64,000 nucleotides of DNA from a phage: sequence record PZ543597.1. The stretch is one strand, 5' to 3'. A model generated the notes under the pieces. That model saw only the letters and a program-made list of their open reading frames with translations, made no database searches and was not told the origin of the DNA. How positions within the stretch are numbered: the first letter of the stretch is position 1; each line of letters begins with the position of its first letter. A program made the translations under genes and the position numbers. Below, one piece after another: positions 2,630 to 61,741 of this stretch.

Positions 2630-4687
2630 ATGGAACTTATTACAGAATTATTTGACGGCGCTTCGGCGCCGGTTGTTAACTTAAATCCTAAGCATAAAAT
2701 ACCTCAAATTTTTGCTATTCAAGCCGGTGAAGAAAGCGTGCTTCCTGGATTTAGATTTTGTACATACACCTCTGGTGGTGATACAAATAAAAACGTTAAG
2801 CCAGGCGATAAAATGATGCATATCGTAATGATAGGTGTTAATGAGAAACTATCATTAGTTAAACTTAGAAACTTGGGTGGAAATCCAATTGGTGTCATTA
2901 ATGCCGTTTTTGATACTGCTCTTCAAACAATGAAACAATATAAAATTGACGCATGCTTATTCCGCGTACTAAAGAGTAAAACAAATGGTGCAGCTCGTCA
3001 AATGCAAGTTATTGCCGACCGTTTAGTACGTACTAAAGGAGCAGGTCGATATGTTCTTTTAAAGGAAATCTGGGATTACGATAAAAAGTACGCATATATT
3101 ATGGTTTACCGTAAAAATGCCAATTTAGAAGACATTCCAGGTGTACCTCCTATTTCAACTGAGTTATTCACAAAAGTTGAATCAAAGGTTGGCGATGTTT
3201 ATGTAGATGTTAAAACGGGTAATGCTGTTCCTAAAGCTGTCGCTGTTGCCGCTTCTATTGCTTTAGAAAATGATAAGCGCACGGATCAAGCTGTTATTCA
3301 GAAAACTAAAATTAGTCGTCGATTAGCAGCACAAGCTCAATATTCTACTGTCGATGCTTCACTTCAGGGTGATAGCTTCGCTGCTAAGAAATATCAAGAG
3401 TTTGAATCTAAAGTTCCGGTATATAAAGCAGAAGGATCAATGAATTCTGGCGTTATTCAGATTGGTTCAAACTTCAGCAAAGGAGCTATCGGTGGTATGA
3501 GAAGTGCTTCTCGTTTTAAATCTAACGATTATGAACTAGAAAGCTTCCGAAATCATATTGCATTGGCCCATGCACGTTTACGTGATCCATCTATTAAGTT
3601 ACAGAGCGATATAACATATCAAGGTTCTCAGGAATATTTAAAGAATAAAGAATTTTTTGATTATAAAACTGATAAAATTTTAAGCGATCTTGCTGACATT
3701 AATATTTCTAATAGCTTTGATGTTATTAAGAAAATTATCAATGATTTAGTTAAAGGTTCTAAAGCCACGCCAGACGAAAAGGTAGCTATTATTCAATTTG
3801 TCATGAATGGCATTTATAAATTGATTAATGAATCTGCTGCTCAGGCATATGAATACGCAAGCACCGAAGTAACTCCAAAAGGATTAACTCAGGCTGAGTC
3901 TGATGTAATTGAAGATTATTGTGCAGATTCATATGTTGAAATGAACTCATTCCTCTTGGGTAAACCAGATTCTACCCGTGAAGAATATATGGAACGAGCT
4001 ATTAAACACATCGAGACAATGGATTCTGCCTTTGCCAAAGGTTCAGTTCTTCCTCCAGGAACTACGCTTTATCGTGGACAAGAAGTTACCTTTAAAACTT
4101 TACGTCATAATATTGAAAATAAAATGTTCTATTTCAAGAACTTCGTATCCACATCACTTAAACCAAATATCTTCGGTGAGCATGGTAAAAACTATATGGC
4201 TCTAGATGATTCCGGTGCAGTATTTTCTGGTGAAGGAGAAGGTTCAGTTGACGCAGAAGATTTGATGCATATGGGCAGTCACTCTGCTTATGCGAATGAA
4301 GATGCTGAAACTAGCGTGGGTATGGTAATTAAAGGAGCTGAGCGAATCAAAGTTATCGTTCCAGGTCATTTATCAGGATTTCCATCAGAAGCTGAAGTTA
4401 TTTTACCGCGTGGAATTTTGCTGAAGATTAATAAAGTGAGTACGTACATGATGAAAGAAACTGCTTATAACAAGTATCTAATCGAAGGCACAATCGTTCC
4501 TCCTTCTGAACAATTAGAAGAATCGGTATATGATGGCGACCATCTAATGGAAACTGGTGAAGTTCGTCCAATGGCTGGATTTAATCAATTCCTTGTAGAA
4601 GAATCAAAAGAAGAGGAAAACGAAGTTTCTCAAATCTTGGCTTCTTTGGTTAACATCAACGGAATGTCTAAAAAGTTCAAAATGTAG
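2630..4687 (+). CDS. Alt paralogue, ADP-ribosyltransferase with divergent central region
   Basis: 685-aa ORF 3 nt after alt; shares N-terminus (MELITELFD, CTYTSGGDTN, KQYKIDAC, GRYVLLKE) and C-terminal motifs (TLYRGQ, NFVSTSL, EAEVILPRG); residues ~230-400 unrelated to copy 1. Confidence 0.85.
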   Translation: MELITELFDGASAPVVNLNPKHKIPQIFAIQAGEESVLPGFRFCTYTSGGDTNKNVKPGDKMMHIVMIGVNEKLSLVKLRNLGGNPIGVINAVFDTALQTMKQYKIDACLFRVLKSKTNGAARQMQVIADRLVRTKGAGRYVLLKEIWDYDKKYAYIMVYRKNANLEDIPGVPPISTELFTKVESKVGDVYVDVKTGNAVPKAVAVAASIALENDKRTDQAVIQKTKISRRLAAQAQYSTVDASLQGDSFAAKKYQEFESKVPVYKAEGSMNSGVIQIGSNFSKGAIGGMRSASRFKSNDYELESFRNHIALAHARLRDPSIKLQSDITYQGSQEYLKNKEFFDYKTDKILSDLADINISNSFDVIKKIINDLVKGSKATPDEKVAIIQFVMNGIYKLINESAAQAYEYASTEVTPKGLTQAESDVIEDYCADSYVEMNSFLLGKPDSTREEYMERAIKHIETMDSAFAKGSVLPPGTTLYRGQEVTFKTLRHNIENKMFYFKNFVSTSLKPNIFGEHGKNYMALDDSGAVFSGEGEGSVDAEDLMHMGSHSAYANEDAETSVGMVIKGAERIKVIVPGHLSGFPSEAEVILPRGILLKINKVSTYMMKETAYNKYLIEGTIVPPSEQLEESVYDGDHLMETGEVRPMAGFNQFLVEESKEEENEVSQILASLVNINGMSKKFKM

Positions 4688-4716
4688 TTTACAAGTCCCT
4701 CGTGTTGTGTTATAAT
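4687..4716 (+). promoter_or_regulatory. T4 early-type sigma70 promoter (GTTTACA-N17-TATAAT)
   Basis: -35 TTTACA 4688-4693, 17-bp spacer, -10 TATAAT 4711-4716. Confidence 0.65.
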
Positions 4717-4747
4717 AATCTTACTGACATAACATGAGGAACACAAA

Positions 4748-48954: not shown

Positions 48955-48977
48955 CCCTCCTGTTTATAAATATATTA
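48955..48977. promoter_or_regulatory. divergent late promoters between gene 53 (-) and gene 4 (+)
   Basis: tgtttataaatatattatctatttataagg contains TATAAATA (plus) and TATTTATA (minus-strand TATAAATA). Confidence 0.55.
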
Positions 48978-49451: not shown

Positions 49452-50275
49452 TGGCTATTTTTCAAATAATTAATGAAAGCACTCCCCAAGTTCCAAAGGT
49501 TAAGCAATCATTAAACGAAAAGAAATGGATTCAGATAGGTCTTGAATACAGAAAGGCCAAAGCAAAAGGAATGACAGGAAAGCAATTTGCTGAAGAAAGA
49601 GGAATCAAATACTCTACGTTTACTTCGGCAATGTCAAAATATGCTTCAGGAATTAAAACAGCTGAAAAGATTCAAAAGCTTGAATCAAAACCAATGAATA
49701 AACTCAATAAGCAAGAAAGACAACTGCTTATGATAAATTCATTCAGGCAAACATTGCGTGATAAAATTCGTAATGAAGGTGCAGCAATTAATAATAAAAC
49801 CAGAAAGTGGTTTGCTGAAACTATTAAGCAAGTAAAAGGACATAAGGTTGTTCGCCCGCAGCCGGGACGAATATATGCTTTTGCTTATGATGCTAAACAC
49901 AAGGAAACTCTTCCTTACTGGGATAAATTTCCTTTGATAATTTACCTTGGTTTAGGTAAGCATAATTTAATGTACGGATTGAACTTGCACTATATTCCAC
50001 CTAAAGCTCGCCAGCAATTCCTAGAAGAGCTTTTAAAGCAATATTCAAATACACCTACTATTACTAATAAAACGAAATTAAAAATTGATTGGAGTCAAGT
50101 GAAAGGATTTAGGGGTGCAGACCAAATGATTAAGGCATATATACCTGGTAATATTATGGGTAGCCTTGTTGAAATCGCCCCGAAAGACTGGGCGAACGTT
50201 GTGTTAATGCCACTTCAGCAGTTCGTTTCAAAAGGAAAACGTTTCTCTGCAAACAAAGTCTGGTCAAATATCTAA
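49451..50275 (+). CDS. 2: DNA end-protector protein gp2
   Basis: 274-aa ORF, order as T4. Confidence 0.85.
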
Positions 50276-50381
50276 TTCTATTATCTTCCATTCTTTTCTA
50301 TTGTTTGTTCTAATTGGAATTGAATGGAAGGGACTTAGACCCATTATACCACCAACATTTATAAAGCATTATGAGGAATAT

Positions 50382-50912
50382 ATGTCGCAAGCACTGCAAC
50401 AAATTTTTAACCAAGCAAATACAACTAACTTTGTAGTATCAATACCACATAGTAATACTACATCTGCTTTTACTTTAAATGCTCAGTCAGTTCCTATTCC
50501 AGGAATTAGGATACCTGTTACTGATACCGTGACTGGGCCGTTTGGACTAGGCAGAGCACAACGTCCAGGAGTTACATTTGAATACGATCCACTCATCGTG
50601 AGATTTATAGTTGACGAAGAGCTTAAGTCGTGGATAGGAATGTATGAATGGATGCTAGGAACTAGTAACTATCTTACAGGCGAAAATACTGCCCAAAAAA
50701 CAGGTCCTGAATACATTACGCTTTACATTTTAGATAATAGTAAAACTGAAATCGTGATGTCAATAAATTTTTATAAGCCTTGGGTTTCTGACCTGTCTGA
50801 AGTAGAATTTAGCTACACGGAAGATTCAGACCCAGCTTTAGTATGCACAGCAACGATTCCTTATACGTATTTTCAAGTAGAAAAAGATGGCAAAATTATA
50901 GCAGAAGTTTAA
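50382..50912 (+). CDS. 3: tail completion / sheath stabilizer gp3
   Basis: start placed at internal ATG (MSQALQQIFNQANTT..., 176 aa) with SD gaggaa; ORF track extends to 50301. Confidence 0.8.
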   Translation: MSQALQQIFNQANTTNFVVSIPHSNTTSAFTLNAQSVPIPGIRIPVTDTVTGPFGLGRAQRPGVTFEYDPLIVRFIVDEELKSWIGMYEWMLGTSNYLTGENTAQKTGPEYITLYILDNSKTEIVMSINFYKPWVSDLSEVEFSYTEDSDPALVCTATIPYTYFQVEKDGKIIAEV

Positions 50913-50961
50913 TGCTTCAGTTTCATGTGTTATAATCTTAACTAAATTTGAGGAGAAACAC

Positions 50962-51686
50962 ATGAAACTAATCTTTTTAAGTGGTGTAAAGCGTAGTGGA
51001 AAAGATACTACTGCAGATTTTATCATGAATAATTATTCTGCAGTTAAATATCAACTTGCTGGTCCTATTAAAGATGCATTGGCTTATGCATGGGGTGTAT
51101 TTGCAGCAAACACTGACTATCCTTGCTTAACTCGTAGAGAGTTTGAAGGAATTGACTATGATCGTGAGACTAATTTGAATTTGACTAAATTAGAAGTAAT
51201 TATGATTATGGAACAAGCATTTTGCTATCTTAATGGTAAAAGCCCAATTAAAGGTGTGTTTGTTTTTGATGACGAAGGAAAAGAATCAGTTAATTTCGTA
51301 GCATTTAACAAAATTACTGACGTTATAAATAATATTGAAGATCAATGGTCAGTCCGTCGTCTGATGCAAGCCCTAGGTACGGATTTGATTGTTAATAACT
51401 TCGACCGCATGTACTGGGTAAAATTATTTGCTTTAGATTATCTTGATAAATTTAACTCAGGTTATGATTATTATATCGTTCCTGATACCCGTCAAGATCA
51501 TGAAATGGATGCGGCTAGGGCGATGGGTGCTACAGTAATTCATGTAGTTCGTCCTGGTCAAAAATCCAATGATACACATATTACAGAAGCTGGATTGCCA
51601 ATTCGTGATGGCGATTTAGTAATTACAAACGATGGTTCTCTTGAAGAACTTTTTTCTAAAATTAAAAATACACTAAAGGTACTATA

Positions 51687-51687
<1 letters not shown>
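50962..51687 (+). CDS. 1: deoxynucleoside monophosphate kinase gp1
   Basis: 241-aa ORF with P-loop GVKRSGKDT; order as T4. Confidence 0.9.
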
Positions 51688-52372
<685 letters not shown>

Positions 52373-52385
52373 TTTCACAAAGTTG

Positions 52386-52414
52386 TTTACATAGGGTTTT
52401 AGTTGTGATACTAT
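52386..52414 (+). promoter_or_regulatory. early-type promoter (TTTACA-N17-TACTAT) embedded in an inverted repeat
   Basis: -35 52386-52391, -10 52409-52414; ATAGGGT/ACCCTAT arms at 52391-52397 and 52416-52422. Confidence 0.6.
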
Positions 52415-52448
52415 TACCCTATCAAAACAAAACCAAATGGAAATCAAA

Positions 52449-52682
52449 ATGAAAACTTACCAAGAATTTATTGCTGAAACTGCTGATGTAAAAGTTGAGT
52501 TTATTTACACTGGCAAGAAAGATAAAATGGGTGAAATGCCTCATGGAGTTCTTCGTGATGCATTAGATAATTTCGGTCAACTCGCCGCAGAAGATTACGG
52601 TGATAAAATTGTTGTTACTGGTCCTGCTGCAGTTATTGAAAAATGGGCAGCAGAAAATAAATCAATTTTTCGTAAAAAATAA
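52449..52682 (+). CDS. internal-protein-like head protein with capsid-targeting leader (MKTYQEFIAE)
   Basis: 77 aa from the internal ATG; N-terminal MKTYQEFIAE is the T4 IP capsid-targeting/gp21-cleavage motif (L/I-x-E). Confidence 0.75.
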   Translation: MKTYQEFIAETADVKVEFIYTGKKDKMGEMPHGVLRDALDNFGQLAAEDYGDKIVVTGPAAVIEKWAAENKSIFRKK

Positions 52683-52683
52683 G

Positions 52684-52712
52684 TTTACTTTTAGATAGGG
52701 TAGTGATACTAT
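52684..52712 (+). promoter_or_regulatory. early-type promoter (TTTACT-N17-TACTAT) embedded in an inverted repeat
   Basis: -35 52684-52689, -10 52707-52712; GATAGGGTA/TACCCTATC arms at 52694-52702 and 52713-52721. Confidence 0.6.
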
Positions 52713-52740
52713 TACCCTATCTACTACTGAGGAGAATAAA

Positions 52741-52926
52741 ATGAAACGTTGTGAATTAATTCGAAATGTTGCTATTGCAATTTCTGCTTCCGCTTTTAGT
52801 TTTTCAATGTTTGTTGGATTTATATGTGGATTATTGACTACAGCAGAAAATGTGTTTTCACTTGTAGTAGCATTTTTAATTGGTTTAATTGCTATTGTTA
52901 TGGATAAAATTTCTAAAGGTGAATAA
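52741..52926 (+). CDS. small hydrophobic (two-TM) protein
   Basis: 61-aa ORF with two hydrophobic segments, SD gaggag. Confidence 0.55.
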   Translation: MKRCELIRNVAIAISASAFSFSMFVGFICGLLTTAENVFSLVVAFLIGLIAIVMDKISKGE

Positions 52927-53324
52927 TGAACGTTGAATATTATGTATATGCGGATTACGAAAATAATCCGTCTAAAGATGAAGATAATCGTTTAGGTGTA
53001 GATGCTTTCGATTCCCCTGCGGCGGCATGGCAATGGGTTGAAAGAACCGATATTCCTTACCGTTATATTGAAGTGGTTGACCACGCAGGAAACAAGTATC
53101 CTAAGGAAGCATATGTTGCTTCCGGGAAGGTAAATTTCCTTTTGTTTGCAGGTGATAATTATTATCCCCGTGGTGGGTATACCGATTTAATTGCTAAAGC
53201 ATTCTCTGAAGATGAACTCCGTGACATTATCAAAGAAAATGAAAACAAACCGATGGATTCTAATCGCTTTGATTGGTGGCAAATCGTAAATGCTAATACT
53301 CACACTATTGTTGATGAAGGCTGA
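52926..53324 (+). CDS. hypothetical protein
   Basis: 132-aa ORF, start overlaps the previous stop. Confidence 0.55.
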   Translation: MNVEYYVYADYENNPSKDEDNRLGVDAFDSPAAAWQWVERTDIPYRYIEVVDHAGNKYPKEAYVASGKVNFLLFAGDNYYPRGGYTDLIAKAFSEDELRDIIKENENKPMDSNRFDWWQIVNANTHTIVDEG

Positions 53325-53326
53325 TA

Positions 53327-53614
53327 ATGATTCTTTATGCGAAAGTATCATCCATTGAAAATGGATATAAATATGATCAAGACGCGGCTAAAGCTTTGAT
53401 TGATGATTATGGCATTTTAACATGTTTTGAAGTTGAAAAGGTTTACATTGACCGTTCATCTTCTCAAGTTAAATTAGTGAAGGAAGAACGTAAATTTAAT
53501 ACAGTAAATTTTGATTTCTTTATTGAAACAGAAAAAGGTCCTCTTGAATATGATATTTTCAAGAATCCTTTGGGTCTTGAATGCATCGTAAATATGTATT
53601 ATTATAAATGGTAA
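53327..53614 (+). CDS. hypothetical protein
   Basis: 95-aa ORF. Confidence 0.5.
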   Translation: MILYAKVSSIENGYKYDQDAAKALIDDYGILTCFEVEKVYIDRSSSQVKLVKEERKFNTVNFDFFIETEKGPLEYDIFKNPLGLECIVNMYYYKW

Positions 53615-53711
53615 ATATGCTTTAAGAATTATTTGTTATTATTAACTCATATCGCACTGATTAATACCCTCTATCATCAAGGGTTCTTGCTTAAGAGCCT
53701 TTGTTAATAAT

Positions 53712-53784
53712 TGGGAATTAGCCAAGTTGGTAAGGCACTGGATTTTGATTCCAGGATGCAAAGGTTCGAGTCCTTTATTCCCAG
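53712..53784 (+). tRNA. tRNA-Gln (anticodon UUG)
   Basis: acceptor TGGGAAT/ATTCCCA, anticodon loop tTTTGAt, T-loop GGTTCGAGTCC. Confidence 0.85.
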
Positions 53785-53785
53785 C

Positions 53786-53872
53786 GCGAGAATGGCCAAA
53801 TTGGTAAAGGCACAGCACTTAAAATGCTGCGGAATGATTTCCTTGTGGGTTCGAGTCCCACTTCTCGCACCA
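53786..53872 (+). tRNA. tRNA-Leu (anticodon UAA), type II, CCA encoded
   Basis: acceptor GCGAGAA/TTCTCGC, anticodon loop CTTAAAA, long variable arm, 3' ACCA. Confidence 0.85.
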
Positions 53873-53877
53873 AATTT

Positions 53878-53951
<74 letters not shown>

Positions 53952-53961
53952 ATTTAATTTA

Positions 53962-54035
53962 CTCCGTGTAGCTCAGTTTGGTAGAGCGTCTGCTTTGGGA
54001 GCAGAATGTCGTAGGTTCAAATCCTGCCACGGAGA
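53962..54035 (+). tRNA. tRNA-Pro (anticodon UGG)
   Basis: acceptor CTCCGTG/CACGGAG, anticodon loop TTTGGGA, T-loop GGTTCAAATCC. Confidence 0.85.
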
Positions 54036-54037
54036 CT

Positions 54038-54127
54038 GGAGGCGTGGCAGAGTGGTTTAATGCACCGGTCTTGAAAATCGGCAGTCGCTCCGGCGACTCA
54101 TAGGTTCAAATCCTATCGCCTCCGCCA
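54038..54127 (+). tRNA. tRNA-Ser (anticodon UGA), type II, CCA encoded
   Basis: acceptor GGAGGCG/CGCCTCC, anticodon loop CTTGAAA, long variable arm. Confidence 0.85.
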
Positions 54128-54132
54128 GTTTT

Positions 54133-54208
54133 GCTGATTTAGCTCAGTAGGTAGAGCAACTCACTTGTAATGAGAAGGTCGGCGGTTCGATTCCGTCAAT
54201 CAGCACCA
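54133..54208 (+). tRNA. tRNA-Thr (anticodon UGU), CCA encoded
   Basis: acceptor GCTGATT/AATCAGC, anticodon loop CTTGTAA. Confidence 0.85.
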
Positions 54209-54209
54209 A

Positions 54210-54284
54210 GGCCCTGTAGCTGGAAGGTTCAAGCAAGCGACTCATAATCGCCAGATGGTGGTTCAATTCCACCCAGGGCCACCA
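54210..54284 (+). tRNA. tRNA with CAU anticodon (Ile via lysidine, or Met), CCA encoded
   Basis: acceptor GGCCCTG/CAGGGCC, anticodon loop CTCATAA. Confidence 0.8.
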
Positions 54285-54293
54285 AATTAATTT

Positions 54294-54380
54294 GGGGAGT
54301 TATCCCGTAGAGGTAGCGGTGTGGACTGTAAATCCATTGTCATTGCGACTCGGGTGGTTCGACTCCACCACTCCCCACCA
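54294..54380 (+). tRNA. tRNA-Tyr (anticodon GUA), type II, CCA encoded
   Basis: acceptor GGGGAGT/ACTCCCC, anticodon loop CTGTAAA, long variable arm. Confidence 0.8.
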
Positions 54381-54384
54381 ATTT

Positions 54385-54459
54385 GGATGTGTAGCTCAAT
54401 GGCAGAGCGATCGCCTGTTAAGCGATTGGTTATAGGTTCGAATCCTATCACGTCCGCCA
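54385..54459 (+). tRNA. tRNA-Asn (anticodon GUU), CCA encoded
   Basis: acceptor GGATGTG/CACGTCC, anticodon loop CTGTTAA, T-loop GGTTCGAATCC. Confidence 0.8.
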
Positions 54460-54573
54460 AATTTGTGACAACTGTCACATTAATATCTACTTGACGCGAT
54501 TATAGGGGTTGAACTGATCACTCTTCTCTTAATTTCGTGTGAAGACATCTTGATTGTTGGAGTAGGTATTAAT

Positions 54574-54649
54574 GTGGCCGTAGTTCAGTTGGTAGAACTC
54601 GAGATTGTGATTCTCGTAGTCATGGGTTCGACTCCCATCGGTCACCCCA
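54574..54649 (+). tRNA. tRNA-His (anticodon GUG), CCA encoded
   Basis: acceptor GTGGCCG/CGGTCAC, anticodon stem CGAGA/TCTCG with loop TTGTGAT, discriminator C. Confidence 0.75.
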
Positions 54650-54653
54650 ATTA

Positions 54654-54729
54654 CGGGGCATAGCTCAGAAGGAAGAGCAAGGACCTTCTAAGTCCTAGGT
54701 CGTAGGTTCGATCCCTACTGCCTCGACCA
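54654..54729 (+). tRNA. tRNA-Arg (anticodon UCU), CCA encoded
   Basis: acceptor CGGGGCA/TGCCTCG, anticodon loop CTTCTAA, T-loop GGTTCGATCC. Confidence 0.85.
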
Positions 54730-54747
54730 ATTATAAGTGAGGAAAAT

Positions 54748-55098
54748 ATGAAAGGTAATGTTTATTTAGTAGTTCATGATTTAACATTCTATTTTAATCA
54801 TAATGATACTGTTATTTCTGAACGTGTAATTAATTTGCTTTATCAGCATGCAGATTATGTTTATGTCGAAAACGAATATGGTCATTGGCAATTTCTCAAA
54901 AATCGTTCATTTGGTTTAGATGGTTACGAATATTTTGATCGTAAAGACCTTTTAGATACAATTCCGTTATCTACACAATATCAAAATCATAAGTCTTTAC
55001 ATAAATGCCGGCTAATTCGAAATGCTGAATCCGCGTATGAAGCAATTGATTTGTGGCGTAAACGCCGTGAATATATTGATTCTTTAAAAGAATATTAA
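54748..55098 (+). CDS. hypothetical protein
   Basis: 116-aa ORF with SD (gaggaaa) directly after tRNA-Arg. Confidence 0.6.
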   Translation: MKGNVYLVVHDLTFYFNHNDTVISERVINLLYQHADYVYVENEYGHWQFLKNRSFGLDGYEYFDRKDLLDTIPLSTQYQNHKSLHKCRLIRNAESAYEAIDLWRKRREYIDSLKEY

Positions 55099-55405
55099 GA
55101 AACCGGGTCGCTACCGGTAAGTCGTCGGACTGATGTTCCCTGGAGTATAGTTTCCTCCCACAGTTTTACTGTGTTCTGGCTCTTTACTATCACAGCAGAA
55201 ACGGCGCACCGAATTATCGATTCGAGGAAATATCTTTGCCGTAAGCCGAGTAGCGTTTTTGACGGAACGTTCGGATATGGTCGAGATATGGCCTTTTAAA
55301 AATATTGAGTAGCGTCAACTACTTAATAACCGGGTTCGAATCCCGGCGTTTCGTACAAACACTTGCCTTAGCAGGTGGAACCCCGACAAGGTTGCCGCAA
55401 GGCTT

Positions 55406-55434
55406 AGCCCCGACCGAAAGGTTGGGGCTTTTTG
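55406..55434 (+). terminator. rho-independent terminator (copy 1 of a repeated 31-bp terminator)
   Basis: agccccgacc-gaaa-ggttggggct + ttttt. Confidence 0.7.
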
Positions 55435-55435
55435 G

Positions 55436-55443
55436 TATAAATA
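55436..55443 (+). promoter_or_regulatory. late promoter TATAAATA upstream of the internal-protein gene
   Basis: exact TATAAATA 36 nt upstream of the ATG at 55479. Confidence 0.65.
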
Positions 55444-55478
55444 TTAGTATATTAAATCTACAAATTAAAACAGGAAAT

Positions 55479-55955
55479 AAGATGAAATCATATACTCAAT
55501 TTTTAAATGAAGCGGTGTTAAATGAAGCATCTAGCACCGAAATTCAAGCTGTTGCAAAAGCTGCCATTGCCGCGGGTAAATATTCCTATAAAGATGCTTC
55601 TGATGAATCGCGATTCCAGTTTGCACGCGACATGAAAGCGGAAGGATTTACGGGAAATGCAGTTAGTATGGCCTGGAAAAGTTTAGTTGCTACTGGCGCT
55701 GCTTTTGCAAAGGCTTCGGGTAAACCTGCTCCTAAAGCAGATCCTAAAGCGGCACAAGAAAAAAATATCGTTAAAGGAATTATCGCTAAATATGAAGCTA
55801 TCCTTAAAGAGCTTTTAGTAATCAAAACCGAAGGCCAAAAGTTAGCCCGTGCTTATAGTTTCAAAGATAATCCACATGTTCACTCTCTTGAGTATGTTGA
55901 AGACATCCAAAAAATTATTAAAGACCGCATTTGGTCTGCTAAACAAATCAAATGA
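55479..55955 (+). CDS. internal-protein-like head protein with capsid-targeting leader (MKSYTQFLNEA)
   Basis: 158 aa; start at internal ATG with SD aggaaa; leader fits the IP capsid-targeting motif; Ala/Lys-rich body. Confidence 0.75.
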   Translation, partial: KMKSYTQFLNEAVLNEASSTEIQAVAKAAIAAGKYSYKDASDESRFQFARDMKAEGFTGNAVSMAWKSLVATGAAFAKASGKPAPKADPKAAQEKNIVKGIIAKYEAILKELLVIKTEGQKLARAYSFKDNPHVHSLEYVEDIQKIIKDRIWSAKQIK

Positions 55956-55962
55956 CATTCTT

Positions 55963-55990
55963 AGCCCCGACCGAAAGGTTGGGGCTTTTT
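55963..55990 (+). terminator. rho-independent terminator (copy 2 of the repeated 31-bp terminator)
   Basis: same 31-bp hairpin sequence as at 55403-55433. Confidence 0.7.
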
Positions 55991-56080
55991 AGTTTGAATC
56001 ACTCGGATAACGCTGTTACGGATAGTAACAAAGTAATAAATAATTAATAACCAACCGATAAATTATTTCAAGGATTTTAA

Positions 56081-56644
56081 ATGAAAACCTATGCCGAATT
56101 TTTAACCGAAGCAGCAAAATTACCATCTGAAGCAGATCTTACTAAAGTATTCTTCCAATTGGACCCAAAAGACCGCGGCGATTTTCTTAAGTGGAAAGCT
56201 AAAGCTATTGAAATGTACAACATCGATAATAGTTCTTTTACAATGAGTCAAGAAAATAAATTCAATAAAGCATTTTTCAAAATTTCTAAGAAATTGGCAT
56301 CTGGCGCTCAGGTTCCTAAATCTGTGTTAGCTACTCCTGAACGCGCACCTGTTAAAATTTCTAAGAATATGTTCGACACTAAAAAATACGTTAATGCTTT
56401 GAATAAAGCTCTTGATGCATTGGATGATGCAAAGAAGGCAGCCCGCGATCTTCAAGACGTGTACACCGATTTTGACCGCAAAACTAAAGGTTCTATTTCA
56501 AATAGCGAACGCAATAGTGTAAGTGTTTATTCTGATAGCCTTGATGTTCTTGGCGATGCGTATACTGAAATTAAAAATCGTATTAACACTGCATCTAAGC
56601 TAAAAGCTGCTGCAGAAGCTATAATAAGTAAACTAGGTAAATAA
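56081..56644 (+). CDS. internal-protein-like head protein with capsid-targeting leader (MKTYAEFLTEA), IPIII-sized
   Basis: 187-aa ORF; leader MKTYAEFLTEA; SD aaggat. Confidence 0.75.
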   Translation: MKTYAEFLTEAAKLPSEADLTKVFFQLDPKDRGDFLKWKAKAIEMYNIDNSSFTMSQENKFNKAFFKISKKLASGAQVPKSVLATPERAPVKISKNMFDTKKYVNALNKALDALDDAKKAARDLQDVYTDFDRKTKGSISNSERNSVSVYSDSLDVLGDAYTEIKNRINTASKLKAAAEAIISKLGK

Positions 56645-56652
56645 TTTTAAAT

Positions 56653-56677
56653 CCCTATCTAAATGATAGGGCTTTTT
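56653..56677 (+). terminator. rho-independent terminator
   Basis: CCCTATC-taaat-GATAGGG hairpin + cTTTTT. Confidence 0.65.
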
Positions 56678-56810
56678 GGTATCTAGGCCTTTCTGGACCT
56701 CTCTAGGCATCATTTAGTTTCTACCCTTTATAATATATTATCCTATCCTTTAACTGCCCCTTCCCTCCCTAGAATTCCCTAAAACTTTTTAAAATTTTTT
56801 CACAAAACTG

Positions 56811-56839
56811 TTTACATCCCCGTTCTTCCATGGTACTAT
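56811..56839 (+). promoter_or_regulatory. early-type promoter (TTTACA-N17-TACTAT)
   Basis: -35 56811-56816, -10 56834-56839. Confidence 0.65.
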
Positions 56840-56883
56840 ACAACTATCAACTACTGATACAGAAAAACAACTTGGAGAATGAA

Positions 56884-57147
56884 ATGGATAATTACGGCGA
56901 ACTGTTCAACTTCTTTATGAAATGCGTTTCAGAAGATTTCGGTCGTACAGTGAATGATATTAAAGTTATCGGTCCTGATCATCCGATGTTTGAAACTTAC
57001 GCAGTAATGGGTAATGAAGACGGTCAGTGGTATACTGTAAAAGTTGTGATTAACATGTTCACAGCAGAAGGTTATGTTAAACTGTCTTCTAAAGTTTATC
57101 ATGACAACGACGAAATCGCAGAAGAATATTTCAATAATATGAAATAA
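56884..57147 (+). CDS. hypothetical early protein
   Basis: start at internal ATG (MDNYGELFNFF...) with SD ggaga, downstream of the predicted promoter; ORF track begins at 56830. Confidence 0.55.
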   Translation: MDNYGELFNFFMKCVSEDFGRTVNDIKVIGPDHPMFETYAVMGNEDGQWYTVKVVINMFTAEGYVKLSSKVYHDNDEIAEEYFNNMK

Positions 57148-57148
57148 G

Positions 57149-57177
57149 TTTACACAGGCTCATGATTGAGATATTAT
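57149..57177 (+). promoter_or_regulatory. early-type promoter (TTTACA-N17-TATTAT) overlapping a 28-bp palindrome
   Basis: -35 57149-57154, -10 57172-57177; aggctcat...atgagcct inverted repeat 57156-57183. Confidence 0.6.
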
Positions 57178-57202
57178 GAGCCTATAATTTGAGGAAAATA
57201 TT

Positions 57203-57538
57203 ATGAAACGTAACTTTAGCAAAGATTTTTGCAATAGAAATGATTACCCTGAAGAGCTTTTTGAATCTAAGGACTTTAAAGAGTTTAATGAACGTTCTCA
57301 AAACATACCTGTACAATGGGTGTTAGATTATGCCAATCGTATCTTTGAAGGTGTGCGGGATATTTGTCCTGATGATGAAGCTCCTTATTTTAAAAAGGCT
57401 TGGGAACTCGCCAATCAAGCATATATCAATGCTTCAGAATCTTATAAAGGTACTGACGACGATTTTATTTTACTGGCTATTAACGATGCCATTGTCGAGT
57501 CCATCAACGTCTTTATCGACGAGCTAGACGAAGAATAA
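57203..57538 (+). CDS. hypothetical early protein
   Basis: 111-aa acidic ORF with SD gaggaaa. Confidence 0.6.
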   Translation: MKRNFSKDFCNRNDYPEELFESKDFKEFNERSQNIPVQWVLDYANRIFEGVRDICPDDEAPYFKKAWELANQAYINASESYKGTDDDFILLAINDAIVESINVFIDELDEE

Positions 57539-57539
57539 G

Positions 57540-57568
57540 TTTACAATCTATTAAAAACGTGATATTAT
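57540..57568 (+). promoter_or_regulatory. early-type promoter (TTTACA-N17-TATTAT)
   Basis: -35 57540-57545, -10 57563-57568. Confidence 0.65.
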
Positions 57569-57595
57569 CTAATTGTATCAATCTAAGGAAATACT

Positions 57596-58189
57596 ATGAA
57601 CACACTGAAGAAAATTGTTGAGTTTATTCGCACTAAACTTGGTTCTGCTATGGCTAAAAATCTATCTGTTGAAGAACAGTATACTGCTGCAGCAGCAAAA
57701 CTACTTGATAAAATTAAAGATCTAAAAACTGCTTCTATTAAATCTATTAATGAAGAAAAACGTATTCGTGAACTTGTTATCGAAAAGAATCGACAGGCCG
57801 AATCAAAAGAGCGTGAAATTCGTAAACTTCTTTCCGAAGGTCAAGATGTAACAATGCATGCTAAACTCGGTTTACTATATCGCCGAACAGCTGAGCAGTT
57901 GACTACTAAAGCTGACGGTTATGCTGAAATGCGAATTGAAATCGCCAAGAAAGTAGTTGAGTTAGATGATGCTCGTCAAGAACTTGCAGTTAAATTGGAA
58001 TATATCCGTGAAACTCGTGCAGCAAATGCCCTTGGAATTAGTACTGCCGATGATGTAGTTGAAATCGCAGCGCTGACTAAGGTTGATATTGAAGATACCC
58101 TTGCTCGAGTTGAAACCTTTAACGGTAATATTTCCGGGGTTGAAACTACCTCTGCCGATGTCCAGGAATATATTAATTCTCTGAAATAA
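57596..58189 (+). CDS. coiled-coil protein, possible PspA/IM30-like
   Basis: 197-aa ORF, heptad-rich, charged; loose resemblance to the E. coli PspA helical pattern from memory; not verified. Confidence 0.6.
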
Positions 58190-61266: not shown

Positions 61267-61268
61267 TG

Positions 61269-61297
61269 TTTACTTCCTCCAAGGACTTTGATACTAT
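61269..61297 (+). promoter_or_regulatory. early-type promoter (TTTACT-N17-TACTAT) upstream of denV
   Basis: -35 61269-61274, -10 61292-61297. Confidence 0.6.
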
Positions 61298-61324
61298 ACA
61301 TTCATCAACTACTTGGAGGAAATT

Positions 61325-61741
61325 ATGACTCGTATCAATTTAACACTTGTTTCTGAACTGACCGACCAACATCTTATGGCTGAGTATCGTGAATTGCCAC
61401 GTGTTTTTGGTATAGTTCGTAAGCATGTGGCAAACGGTAAGCGCGCTAAAGATTTTAAAATATCTTCTAAATTTATTTTAGGTTCTGGTCATGTTACTTT
61501 CTTTTACGATAAGTTAGAATTTTTGCGAAAGCGTCAATCGGACATTATAACGGAATGCTTAAAACGCGGGTTCAGTATAAAAGATACTGAAGTTCCTGAC
61601 ATCAGCGATATTCCAGTAGAATGGAAAAATGATTATAATCCATGCAAATCAGCTATTAAGTTGAGTCAACAACGACTCGATGAAAAAATTTTAATGAAGC
61701 CACACTGGTATAAGTATTACGGCAAAAATATTTACATTTAA
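61325..61741 (+). CDS. denV: endonuclease V (pyrimidine-dimer DNA glycosylase)
   Basis: 138 aa from [12 protein letters not shown]...; matches T4 EndoV as recalled; ORF track extends 4 codons upstream. Confidence 0.95.

Follow-up and report, generated by a model that had tools for sequence, protein, structure and literature searches.

The window, that is, the whole stretch of 64,000 nucleotides analyzed here (PZ543597.1), belongs to a Tequatrovirus and has 100% identity with Yersinia phage ZN18. The genes at the locus are arranged in the order 1-57A-57B-IP-trna.4-trna.3-trna.2-tRNAs, and the region of the IP gene, ip6, is the polymorphic ipI locus of T-even phages, lying between 57B and the tRNA region, where T4 homologues can be aligned. 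Two promoters, called sites 1 and 2 below, flank ip6 on both sides, between 57B/acb1 and trna.4. The features, all on the + strand, are as follows.

51914 to 52372, + strand: gene 57B (Acb1/2H-phosphoesterase-like), the conserved left anchor; open reading frame, PHROG 755 (E 5e-68)
52361 to 52393, + strand: conserved upstream half of site 1, gatttaaaataatttcacaaagttgtttacata; A/T-rich UP-like region plus the -35
52383 to 52430, + strand: dyad/hairpin of site 1, from fold prediction and inverted-repeat search
52386 to 52414, + strand: early promoter of site 1; -35 TTTACA 52386-52391, 17-nt spacer, TG 52406-52407, -10 TACTAT 52409-52414
52405 to 52423, + strand: copy 1 of the 19-mer GTGATACTATTACCCTATC, exact match
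52449 to 52682, + strand: ip6-type internal virion protein gene, a mobile cassette between the two units; open reading frame, PHROG 8111
52684 to 52712, + strand: early promoter of site 2; -35 TTTACT 52684-52689, 17-nt spacer, TG 52704-52705, -10 TACTAT 52707-52712
52692 to 52723, + strand: dyad/hairpin of site 2; TAGATAGGGTA 52692-52702 / TACCCTATCTA 52713-52723, 11 perfect pairs
52703 to 52721, + strand: copy 2 of the 19-mer GTGATACTATTACCCTATC, exact match
52741 to 52926, + strand: trna.4, a small membrane protein gene, the conserved right anchor; open reading frame, PHROG 1692

Homologues of 57B are labelled '57B', 'RNA ligase' or 'anti-CBASS Acb1' in the matching records. The ip6 product matches PHROG 8111, 'internal virion protein', over its full length (E 1e-52), starts with the capsid-targeting leader MKTYQEFIAE, and has counterparts annotated as Ip6 or ipVI in phages ACG-C40, JK08 and GiZh. 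An Rfam 15 scan of positions 50000-58000 with E values up to 1 gave only the tRNAs and sub-threshold noise, and nothing between 52380 and 52730.

What, then, are the two sites on either side of ip6? The initial annotation had stated that both are early promoters sharing one 19-mer. A window-wide search indeed returned exactly two copies of the 19-mer, where 0.02 would be expected and none of 100 shuffles reached two, and no further copy turned up in the 64 kb even if up to three mismatches were allowed. Each copy sits within a T4-type early promoter of the form TTTACA/T-17-TACTAT with a TG; the promoter assignment is borne out by these consensus elements and by Yersinia phage fPS-65, a near-identical record in which the equivalent elements are annotated as 'predicted early promoter'. 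The two promoters show a direct similarity of 77% over 39 nt. From the geometry of sigma-70 promoters, transcription at site 1 would start near 52421, and a start near 52719 is predicted at site 2, from where trna.4, trna.3 and trna.2 would be transcribed and, to judge from gene order only, probably the tRNA cluster as well. Part of the 19-mer is semi-generic for the family of T4-type early promoters: GTGATACTAT was found in 95 distinct promoter variants, with nnnCTTATCAA as the consensus after the -10. In two IMG/VR scans with the 15-mers TACTATTACCCTATC and TACTATTACCTCATC, most hits fell by chance in unrelated contigs, and no more than a handful of promoter variants were new.

At both sites an upstream (G)ATAGGGT(A) arm pairs with the 19-mer, as was originally noticed. 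The main stem of site 1 consists of ATAGGGT (52391-52397) and ACCCTAT (52416-52422) with a loop of 18 nt, within which TAGT (52400-52403) and ACTA (52410-52413) make an inner helper stem, while TTGTTT (52383-52388) and AAACAA (52425-52430) add a weak outer one; the -10 falls near the top of the hairpin, half of it in the apical loop (52409) and half in the inner ACTA strand (52410-52413). At site 2, the core of the inverted repeat is GATAGGGTA (52694-52702) and TACCCTATC (52713-52721) with a loop of 10 nt, and in sense RNA the stem is predicted to be lengthened by G:U, U:A and G:U pairs to 14 bp, closed by an AUAC tetraloop. The sense hairpins have predicted energies of -13.7 kcal/mol (z -3.85) at site 1 and -18.5 kcal/mol (z -5.96) at site 2, and in neither case was any of 200 shuffles as stable. 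The left arm adjoins the -35 at site 1 and the extended -10 at site 2, so that the two dyads stand in different registers.

Perfect inverted repeats of 11-13 nt are not rare across the 64 kb, according to a window-wide listing. Therefore, the significance of the dyad has to come from its position, recurrence and covariation, not from the length of its arms. As for position and recurrence, the -10 is enclosed by a stem of 7 or more pairs in 31 of 176 contexts against 11 of 528 shuffles, and in 15 of 104 against 15 of 520 if counting is confined to promoters outside the search bait, i.e., a 5- to 8-fold enrichment, while a hexamer 30 nt downstream, taken as a control position, is enclosed in 0 of 176. 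Such stems are present in only about 15-20% of this promoter family. As for covariation, the dyad is real and is held by compensating base changes. The promoters of T4 ipI and ACG-C40 ip5 have the arms GATGAGGTA/TACCTCATC in place of GATAGGGTA/TACCCTATC, two positions being altered on both arms; in other T4-like promoters the same GTGATACTAT is framed by arms that are unrelated yet pair perfectly, with loops of 9 to 26 nt among related promoters; and in a Klebsiella T4-like phage this promoter keeps its stem in a shifted position, as GGGTT/AACCC. Among 95 promoter variants chosen without regard to pairing, the pairing amounts to 51.2% in one register (43.6+-1.3 in shuffles) and 45.6% in the other (40.1+-1.3), each value unreached in 500 shuffles and above all slid controls. 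The dyad had been called conserved: it is not due to chance and it recurs elsewhere, although its register to the -10 differs between the two sites and its arms vary in sequence. Because of this recurrence, the motif is not just the generic early-promoter consensus without a dyad conserved elsewhere, which had been named as the case that would overturn the idea.

The initial annotation suggested that a dyad over the -10 may be the operator of a dimeric repressor; in a wider form, a dimeric DNA-binding protein of phage or host would bind it to repress or activate both promoters. The dyad does overlap the -10 and +1, the classical position for a repressor, its right arms are identical at both sites, and the mechanism by which T4 early promoters are shut off is described as incompletely understood (PMC3014915). 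However, the half-sites are neither conserved nor fixed in spacing: their sequence varies in compensatory fashion among orthologous promoters, they are 10 nt apart at one site and 18 nt at the other, and many unrelated arm pairs are found within the same promoter family. Since the arms change in step and unrelated pairs bracket the same -10, recognition by sequence is unlikely. In addition, this phage genome has a third promoter with 18 of the 19 bases of the 19-mer, but there TACCCTATC is unpaired in the loop of another hairpin, and where the pairing is imperfect, G:T predominates over A:C on the sense strand. A regulon of such operators was also rejected, because the 9-mer arm TACCCTATC is confined to the two sites within the 64 kb and the shorter GATAGGG, every copy of which lies within a hairpin stem, occurs five times in the window, not in excess of chance (3.9). 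Taken together, the operator reading is unsupported and very improbable, and what stands of the original interpretation is the early promoters with a dyad beyond chance; its other suggestion, a cruciform, is disfavoured by strand bias and long loops.

This strand bias deserves a closer description. Mismatches within the stems are G:T or T:G in 15 cases and A:C or C:A in 6 (one-sided binomial about 0.04, from a small count and with kinship ignored), and these are counts without phylogenetic correction because clustering of the hairpins into lineages merged nearly all of them into one cluster. Left-arm point variants facing fixed right arms are mostly A-to-G, which gives G:U on the sense strand, and the site 2 hairpin is predicted to be more stable in sense than in antisense (-14.7 kcal/mol) by 3.8 kcal/mol. 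An excess of G:T over A:C would not arise from a duplex operator or a symmetric cruciform. G:T is the least destabilizing mismatch in single-stranded DNA as well, and a strand-specific hairpin of single-stranded DNA would likewise tolerate G:T over A:C. Could the structure act in DNA, as a cruciform or single-stranded hairpin that sets off structure-specific recombination or is its target (through cleavage of the endonuclease VII type, or as a folded site like integron attC), or that modulates promoter melting? Pairing is conserved without sequence as in attC sites, crossovers fall between the arms, and Arbiol 2010 placed one crossover of an RB49 PeSL in the loop, with the speculation that a DNA-binding protein might be specific for the stem. 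On the other hand, by established DNA energetics, arms of 6-12 bp with loops of 9-26 nt are unfavourable for cruciform extrusion, an excess such as 15 against 6 is not what a symmetric cruciform predicts, and the crossovers would equally fall where they do simply because the core is the longest stretch of identity that the units share. Nor is there a gene for a dedicated recombinase beside the locus. Action at the DNA level is thus unlikely in our estimation.

In RNA, a transcript from the unit's own promoter would start inside the right arm and so would not fold, while read-through RNA would carry both arms. An intrinsic (Rho-independent) terminator was considered and rejected: the sequences after the stems are CTACTACTGAGG and CAAAACAAAACC, and since there is no U-tract after either hairpin, intrinsic termination is not expected; a terminator scan of the window listed neither site. 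No map of T4 3′-ends or transcription start sites covering the locus was found in the literature searched. Another possible role is that of a translational insulator of the kind classic for T4 genes e, soc, 49 and I-TevI, whose principle has been reviewed (PMC3014915). The same promoter family does include this design: in several relatives, and also at 61274-61321 (denV) and 4697-4738 of the window, the right arm contains the Shine-Dalgarno sequence. When 78 nt of site 2 are folded, the RNA of the -35 pairs weakly with GAGGAG. At both sites of the ip6 locus, however, the right arm stops 6-16 nt short of the Shine-Dalgarno sequence, and no pairing of the 3′ arm with this sequence or the start codon is gained in read-through RNA. 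The unpaired probability of the SD-AUG region from partition functions is alike in read-through and proximal RNA (0.38 vs 0.38 for trna.4, 0.45 vs 0.50 for ip6), which predicts equal translation of ip6 and trna.4 from both transcript forms. Masking of the ribosome site is rejected on this ground, and we consider an insulator here highly unlikely.

How do these elements relate to the variability of the locus? In 769 phage records the span from 57B to trna.4 ranges from 711 bp, with no IP gene, to 1729 bp, with three, and the related phages carry zero to three IP cassettes, variable in number, order and identity and joined within the promoter/inverted-repeat units. The presence or absence of ip5 is bounded by a 33-nt direct repeat including the -35: ACG-C40 and T2 have gatttaaaataatttcacaaagttgtttacata to the left and to the right of ip5, the identical string standing in ACG-C40 ahead of the promoters of ip5 and ip6 alike, and the window has a single copy and no ip5. 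The two units have direct homologues in T4, in the promoters of ipI and trna.4, and the same upstream half is joined to the ip6 leader in the window, whereas T4 and slur02 have it joined to the leader of trna.4. Of 16 distinct IP-like ORFs in related loci, most adjoin such units and a minority (e.g., L033 and L021) do not. Hybrid units with non-matching arms are found in T2 (copy 2), L047 and G4498 (copy 2), which places the crossovers in the shared core. That real phages retain such hybrids, in which the stem is broken, shows that they can do without the hairpin. Recombination at the units requires no more than homology, and the stem may add nothing to it.

Another possibility is that the dyads have no function of their own and are by-products of templated repair of quasi-palindromes and of repeated recombination between promoter copies, hitch-hiking with the useful promoters. 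Mutation templated by quasi-palindromes is an established phenomenon in T4, broken hybrids persist, and the majority of the family's promoters have no stem. T4 also recombines readily at very short homologies (PMC9391042). Against such a passive origin are the 5- to 8-fold enrichment with arm sequences wholly unrelated between promoters, the consistent bracketing of the -10 and not of the downstream hexamer, and the excess of G:U, where templated correction would give perfect pairs. We regard this as quite unlikely, if somewhat less so than an operator.

The reading that we favour, and hold to be reasonably probable, is that the two sites are promoter-plus-hairpin boundary units of swappable IP cassettes, acting through an RNA hairpin and as recombination homology and not as a repressor site. 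Each unit of about 60-70 bp would place three functions in a tiny intergenic space. The first is a strong early promoter for host sigma-70 (a UP-like A/T tract, a GTTTAC -35 and a TG-extended TACTAT -10), which would drive ip6 from site 1 and trna.4 from site 2. The second is the inverted repeat, set in those parts of the promoter that are left unread by sigma-70 (the spacer and the discriminator/+1 region). In RNA reading through from upstream, either early RNA from 57A/57B or late RNA from TATAAATA at 51324, it would form a stable stem-loop just past the upstream stop codon, most likely serving as a 3′ boundary, i.e., a pause or attenuator site or a barrier against 3′ exonucleases. As the third function, the shared core and conserved flanks would offer short homologies to the recombination machinery of T4, so that IP cassettes might be deleted, inserted and swapped via the units, each arriving with its promoter and boundary. 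A bolder extension, which we judge improbable at present, is that -10-enclosing hairpins are a general feature, selected on the sense strand in roughly 15% of T4-type early promoters, and make up a portable 'promoter-in-a-hairpin' code which separates read-through from local RNA and, in the IP cassettes, marks or stabilizes the boundaries and leaves the ribosome site exposed, or else that they are folded single-strand recombination sites, in which case the IP loci would be a recombinase-free analogue of integron cassette arrays.

Internal proteins enter the host together with the phage DNA, and at least some of them counteract its defences: GmrSD is blocked by IPI, and growth on strain ECOR17 calls for IPIII (PMC9391042). 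By way of the flanking units, T-even phages could acquire, drop or exchange such anti-defence cargo with its expression intact. The hairpin and joint reading matters for phage engineering, where the units could be natural self-contained insertion points, and for annotating the several hundred Tequatrovirus genomes among the phage records that match the locus. Compensatory changes and strand bias give the mechanistic role of the stem a concrete, testable form.

Several known systems resemble these units in part. Operators of the LexA/lambda type likewise have a dyad across the -10/+1 and keep the sequence and spacing of their half-sites, both of which vary here. At T4 genes e, soc, 49 and I-TevI, the promoter is likewise inside a hairpin, so that proximal transcripts lack the 5′ arm and read-through RNA folds; those promoters are late or middle, with the 3′ arm over the SD/AUG, whereas here they are early and the ribosome site lies outside the stem. 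Integron cassettes are also small and promoter-dependent, with attC sites as imperfect palindromes conserved in structure and not in sequence, and circular cassette intermediates reported for PeSLs recall them. However, integrons have an integrase and attI and the units here have neither; each unit carries its own promoter, and general homologous recombination can account for the exchange.

PeSLs (RB49/phi1, PST/T4, nt-1/KVP40) are likewise found in hyperplastic regions by small variable genes, with indels and replacements, and recombination between copies is their proposed driver (Arbiol 2010; Comeau 2014). The units share with them a sigma-70-like early promoter with an A/T-rich upstream tract, TTTACW-N17-TAYWAT as in the PeSLs of PST/T4, and the association with indels and replacements of small accessory genes. 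The stem-loop of a PeSL stands upstream of the promoter, often with a G-run/C-run and followed by an A/T-rich tract, whereas the stem here, with its left arm in the spacer, surrounds the -10, has a higher AT content and lacks a U-tract. One PeSL was shown to terminate transcription (Arbiol 2010, PMC2839356; Comeau 2014, PMC4122927), and the IP elements have been regarded as analogues, not homologues, of PeSLs (Arbiol 2010, PMC2839356).

The closest likeness is at the locus itself, since a promoter/inverted-repeat element at the IP locus is already known. Units of about 70 bp combining an early promoter and an inverted repeat were reportedly described at the ipI locus by Repoila, Tetart, Bouet and Krisch in 1994 (EMBO J 13:4181), and were later called PeSL-like. 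As related in later papers, these elements flank IP genes in the two IP loci, have a T4 early promoter as their basis and an AT-rich stem-loop whose size varies, and were proposed to mediate IP shuffling (PMC2839356, PMC4122927). The units described here lie at the same locus, with an early promoter and an overlapping repeat on both sides of a leader-bearing IP ORF, and the same shuffling role is proposed for them; as far as those accounts go, nothing essential differs, and the two units are this phage's copies of the Repoila elements.

The window belongs to Tequatrovirus. Over the 1.2 kb around the two early promoters considered here, site 1 (5′ of ip6) and site 2 (5′ of trna.4), Escherichia phages ECO07P4/P5 and DCP2 and Yersinia phage ZN18 show 100% identity, and many other phages 98%. 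Genes are arranged in the order 1 (dNMP kinase), 57A, 57B/acb1, a 77-aa ORF, trna.4, trna.3 and trna.2, followed by the tRNA cluster.

Features of the locus
51914-52372: 57B/acb1
52386-52414, + strand: site 1 promoter; -35 TTTACA 52386-52391, 17 nt, -10 TACTAT 52409-52414 preceded by TG
52391-52397: left arm ATAGGGT of the site 1 dyad; loop 18 nt, right arm in TACCCTATC
52449-52682: 77-aa ORF (ip6), N-terminus MKTYQEFIAE
52684-52712, + strand: site 2 promoter; -35 TTTACT 52684-52689, 17 nt, -10 TACTAT 52707-52712 preceded by TG
52694-52702: left arm GATAGGGTA of the site 2 dyad; loop 10 nt, right arm TACCCTATC
52741-52926: trna.4

The 77-aa ORF matches the PHROG 'internal virion protein' from end to end (E 1e-52) and is named Ip6 or IpVI in other records. 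Therefore, the two promoters flank an internal-protein (IP) gene; the equivalent locus of T4 holds ipI. In phage GiZh (KT184311.1; 939-949 of sequence L314), 11 nt of the ip6 leader, just 3′ of the right arm of the ip6-upstream unit, are annotated 'direct repeat sequence8 posible binding site of StbAB', a label for which no support was found in the present analysis.

The initial annotation had claimed that both promoters share the 19-mer GTGATACTATTACCCTATC, and it is indeed present on the + strand at 52405-52423 and 52703-52721, each copy lying, as was also proposed, inside an early promoter, which is of the sigma-70 type and T4 kind. No third copy occurs in the 64-kb window even if three mismatches are allowed, and the chance expectation is 0.02 copies. 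The claimed dyads exist as well: at each site the right-hand TACCCTATC is complementary to an arm upstream, in a register relative to the -10 that differs between the sites. The site 2 dyad lengthens to 11 perfect pairs (52692-52702 / 52713-52723), and single-strand folds reach -18.5 kcal/mol (z -5.96 vs shuffles) at site 2 and -13.7 kcal/mol (z -3.85) at site 1. The identical 19-mer and the dyads over both promoters are real and biologically meaningful.

The locus is polymorphic. Across 769 phage records, the distance between the start of 57B and the end of trna.4 falls into discrete values.

Span from 57B start to trna.4 end, IP content and example
about 711 bp: no IP gene (slur02)
about 1010 bp: one IP, ip6 (window)
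about 1040-1080 bp: one IP, ipI (T4)
about 1340 bp: ip5 + ip6 (ACG-C40)
about 1420 bp: ip5 + ip7 (T2)
1729 bp: three IPs (G4498)

When every boundary unit of six phages was listed, the units turned out to be mosaic. The upstream half, 'atttcacaaagttGTTTACat...' or 'taaGTTTACtttta...', goes together with the left arm, and the right arm, TACCCTATC or TACCTCATC, mostly goes with the kind of leader that follows it: TACCTCATC is invariably followed by an ipI/ip5/ip7-type leader, TACCCTATC by leaders of several types. The halves assort freely; the upstream half of site 1 is fused to the ip6 leader in the window and to the trna.4 leader in T4 and slur02. A 33-nt repeat, gatttaaaataatttcacaaagttgtttacata, stands on both sides of ip5 in ACG-C40 and T2, and the window, without ip5, has a single copy. 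Non-matching arms are found in T2 copy 2 (ATAGGGT with ACCTCAT), in the related phage sequence L047 (AATAGGGTA with TACCTCATC) and in G4498 copy 2; such units place crossovers in the core that the units share. A boundary unit of another T4-like genome from IMG/VR (L079, 2020-2085) carries a tandem duplication of core and right arm, 'gatactattacctcatcaa', apparently the result of slippage, or of unequal exchange, inside the core. Spans, mosaic units and mismatched arms fit the recombinational-shuffling model directly, and the units behave as boundaries of cassettes.

A second IP-like cluster lies in the window, with two ORFs having IP-type leaders, MKSYTQFLNEA (start near 55482) and MKTYAEFLTEA (56081-56644). 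Three copies of a terminator unit (...hairpin-GGGCTTTTTGGTAT...), all in register, delimit this cluster at 55403-55442, 55960-55999 and 56647-56686. The stem of copies 1 and 2 is AGCCCCGACC/GGTTGGGGCT; copy 3 keeps the frame with the stem CCCTATC/GATAGGG, the heptamer pair of the promoter dyad in swapped order. A late promoter, TATAAATA (55436), follows immediately on copy 1. In these units, IP cassettes seem to have a second type of boundary, again a repeated hairpin.

What, then, is conserved in the promoter dyads? The 19-mer is partly semi-generic for its family: CYTATC characterises the initiation region throughout the family, since the consensus 3′ of the -10 among 95 distinct promoter variants is nnnCTTATCAA, and the left arms appear adapted to it. 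The initial annotation had considered that the motif might be just this consensus with no dyad elsewhere; the former holds in part, but complementary arms recur in other promoters. The T4 ipI and ACG-C40 ip5 promoters have the window-type core with arms GATGAGGTA/TACCTCATC, which differ from GATAGGGTA/TACCCTATC at two positions per arm and still pair. Many of the 112 IMG/VR stretches retrieved with the pattern GTTTAC-N14-GTGATACTAT have entirely different yet complementary arms around the same core, such as TGTAGGAGC/GCTCCTACA, GGTAGGAGC/GCTCCTACC, GGTGGAGTT/AACTCTACC, CGGAAGTTT/AGACTTCCG, TAGAAGACT/GGTCTTCTA and GTTGATAGGGTA/TACCCTATCAAC. At the trna.4 promoter of a T4-like phage of Klebsiella, a stem is retained in shifted position, GGGTT/AACCC. 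Among the 95 aligned variants, which were not selected for pairing, 51.2% of cells pair in the site 2-type register (shuffles 43.6 ± 1.3, best slid control 42.8%; covariation score 0.281 vs 0.192 shuffled) and 45.6% in the site 1-type register (40.1 ± 1.3, 37.3%; 0.211 vs 0.147), with 0/500 shuffles reaching the observed value in either. In 1.03 Mb of T4-like sequence, Watson-Crick stems scoring at least 7 with a loop enclosing the -10 occur in 31/176 GTTTAC-N18-TAnnAT contexts vs 11/528 with shuffled flanks, and in 0/176 around a control hexamer 30 nt downstream; promoters other than the search bait give 15/104 vs 15/520. Compensated arms, excess of pairing and enrichment of stems together mean that the dyad is a base-pairing feature and not a conserved recognition sequence. 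The operator for a dimeric protein that the initial annotation had in mind is very improbable, as the arms covary instead of staying conserved. A further argument against TACCCTATC as an operator half-site comes from a third promoter, in the window's phage genome (IMGVR_UViG_2974787500_000001; L172, 935-1000, minus strand), which carries gtgGtactattaccctatc (18/19 bases) with TACCCTATC unpaired in the loop of a different stem. That the dyad has no function of its own and persists by templated palindrome maintenance seems quite unlikely.

On which molecule does the stem form? Among single mismatches within stems that are otherwise good, 15 are G:T or T:G and 6 are A:C or C:A, several of the latter in doubtful outer extensions, and left-arm point variants opposite fixed right arms are mostly A-to-G, giving G:U (GATGGGGTA, GGTAGGGTA, ATGGGGT). 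Such a bias is expected of sense-strand RNA, although it is suggestive only, because the counts are small and phylogenetically uncorrected. Neither a duplex operator nor a symmetric cruciform predicts it, while a sense single-stranded DNA hairpin might give it too; a DNA-level hairpin or cruciform active in recombination is on balance unlikely. On the sense strand of site 2, the core adds G:U, U:A and G:U to make a 14-bp stem with an AUAC tetraloop (-18.5 vs -14.7 kcal/mol for the antisense). Transcription is supposed to start ~7 nt 3′ of the -10; from there, the transcript of the own promoter would begin inside the right arm and could not fold, while read-through RNA would have both arms. This geometry points the same way as the strand bias, favouring sense read-through RNA. 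A late-promoter motif, TATAAATA, lies at 51324 inside gene 1, and late RNA from it would read through 57A, 57B, both hairpins and ip6. This motif is over-represented in the window (24 vs 9.9 expected), with + strand copies at 48965, 51324, 53366, 55436, 60466 and 60479.

Canonical termination and masking of the Shine-Dalgarno (SD) sequence are excluded at both sites. Neither hairpin is followed by a U-run, is picked up by the terminator scan or matches an Rfam family. An insulator that masks the SD in read-through RNA is highly improbable, as SD-AUG is unpaired with nearly equal mean probability in read-through and proximal RNA (0.38 vs 0.38 for trna.4; 0.45 vs 0.50 for ip6). Such a design does occur in the same promoter family, with three examples below.

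SD-masking hairpins
61268-61327: early promoter upstream of denV (GTTTAC 61268-61273, TACTAT 61292-61297); hairpin TTCCTCCAAGGA 61274-61285 / TACTTGGAGGAA 61310-61321, 3′ arm holding the denV SD; ATG 61325
4687-4745: GTTTAC early-type promoter; stem CCTCGTGTT 4697-4705 / AACATGAGG 4730-4738 enclosing the -10, one G:T pair; 3′ arm including the GAGG SD of a 96-aa ORF (MKSSLRF...)
L172 promoter: 12-bp hairpin CTGTTCTTCCGT/ACGGAGGAACAG covering the SD

Judged from the sequence, denV translation should be masked in RNA that reads through from the IP-like gene 5′ of it (60984-) and unmasked in promoter-proximal RNA. Two more 'taaGTTTACA' promoters stand directly 3′ of a stop codon, one with an AGGCTC/GAGCCT stem around the -10 region (57147-57200) and one with only a weak TACAAT/ATTGTA pair (57538-57600).

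Overall, the units are probably best explained as cassette boundaries that combine promoter, RNA-acting stem and recombination homology. The conserved core and flanks probably serve as the short homologies for deletion, insertion and exchange of IP genes by the very active recombination system of T4, which is documented to need only very short homologies (PMC9391042). Each compact unit would join a strong early promoter to a stem in positions that polymerase does not read. We infer that the hairpin acts in RNA: it would fold only in read-through RNA, just 3′ of the upstream stop codon, most likely as a 3′ boundary, either a pause/attenuator or an exonuclease barrier that would protect IP mRNA from decay until packaging of the IPs late in infection.

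Promoter/inverted-repeat units at the IP locus have already been described. Repoila et al. in 1994 reportedly found most IP ORFs to be flanked on either side by a sequence of ~70 bp in which an inverted repeat overlaps a T4 early promoter; this element is what the two sites show, and the units of both have every defining feature of it. Two later papers (Arbiol et al. 2010, PMC2839356; Comeau et al. 2014, PMC4122927) credit Repoila et al. with finding elements that resemble promoter-early stem-loops (PeSLs) on the flanks of IP genes at the two IP loci; in their account, the elements consist of T4 early promoters whose stem-loops are weaker, AT-rich and variable in size, and have been proposed to drive IP shuffling. 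To this are added here explicit compensatory evidence for the stem, the sense-strand bias among imperfect pairs, the several-fold enrichment of -10-enclosing stems across T4-type early promoters, and the exclusion of the two roles at these sites. The units behave like PeSLs, but in PeSLs the stem lies upstream of the promoter whereas here it encloses the -10, and Arbiol et al. regard the IP-locus elements as analogues, not homologues, of PeSLs (PMC2839356).
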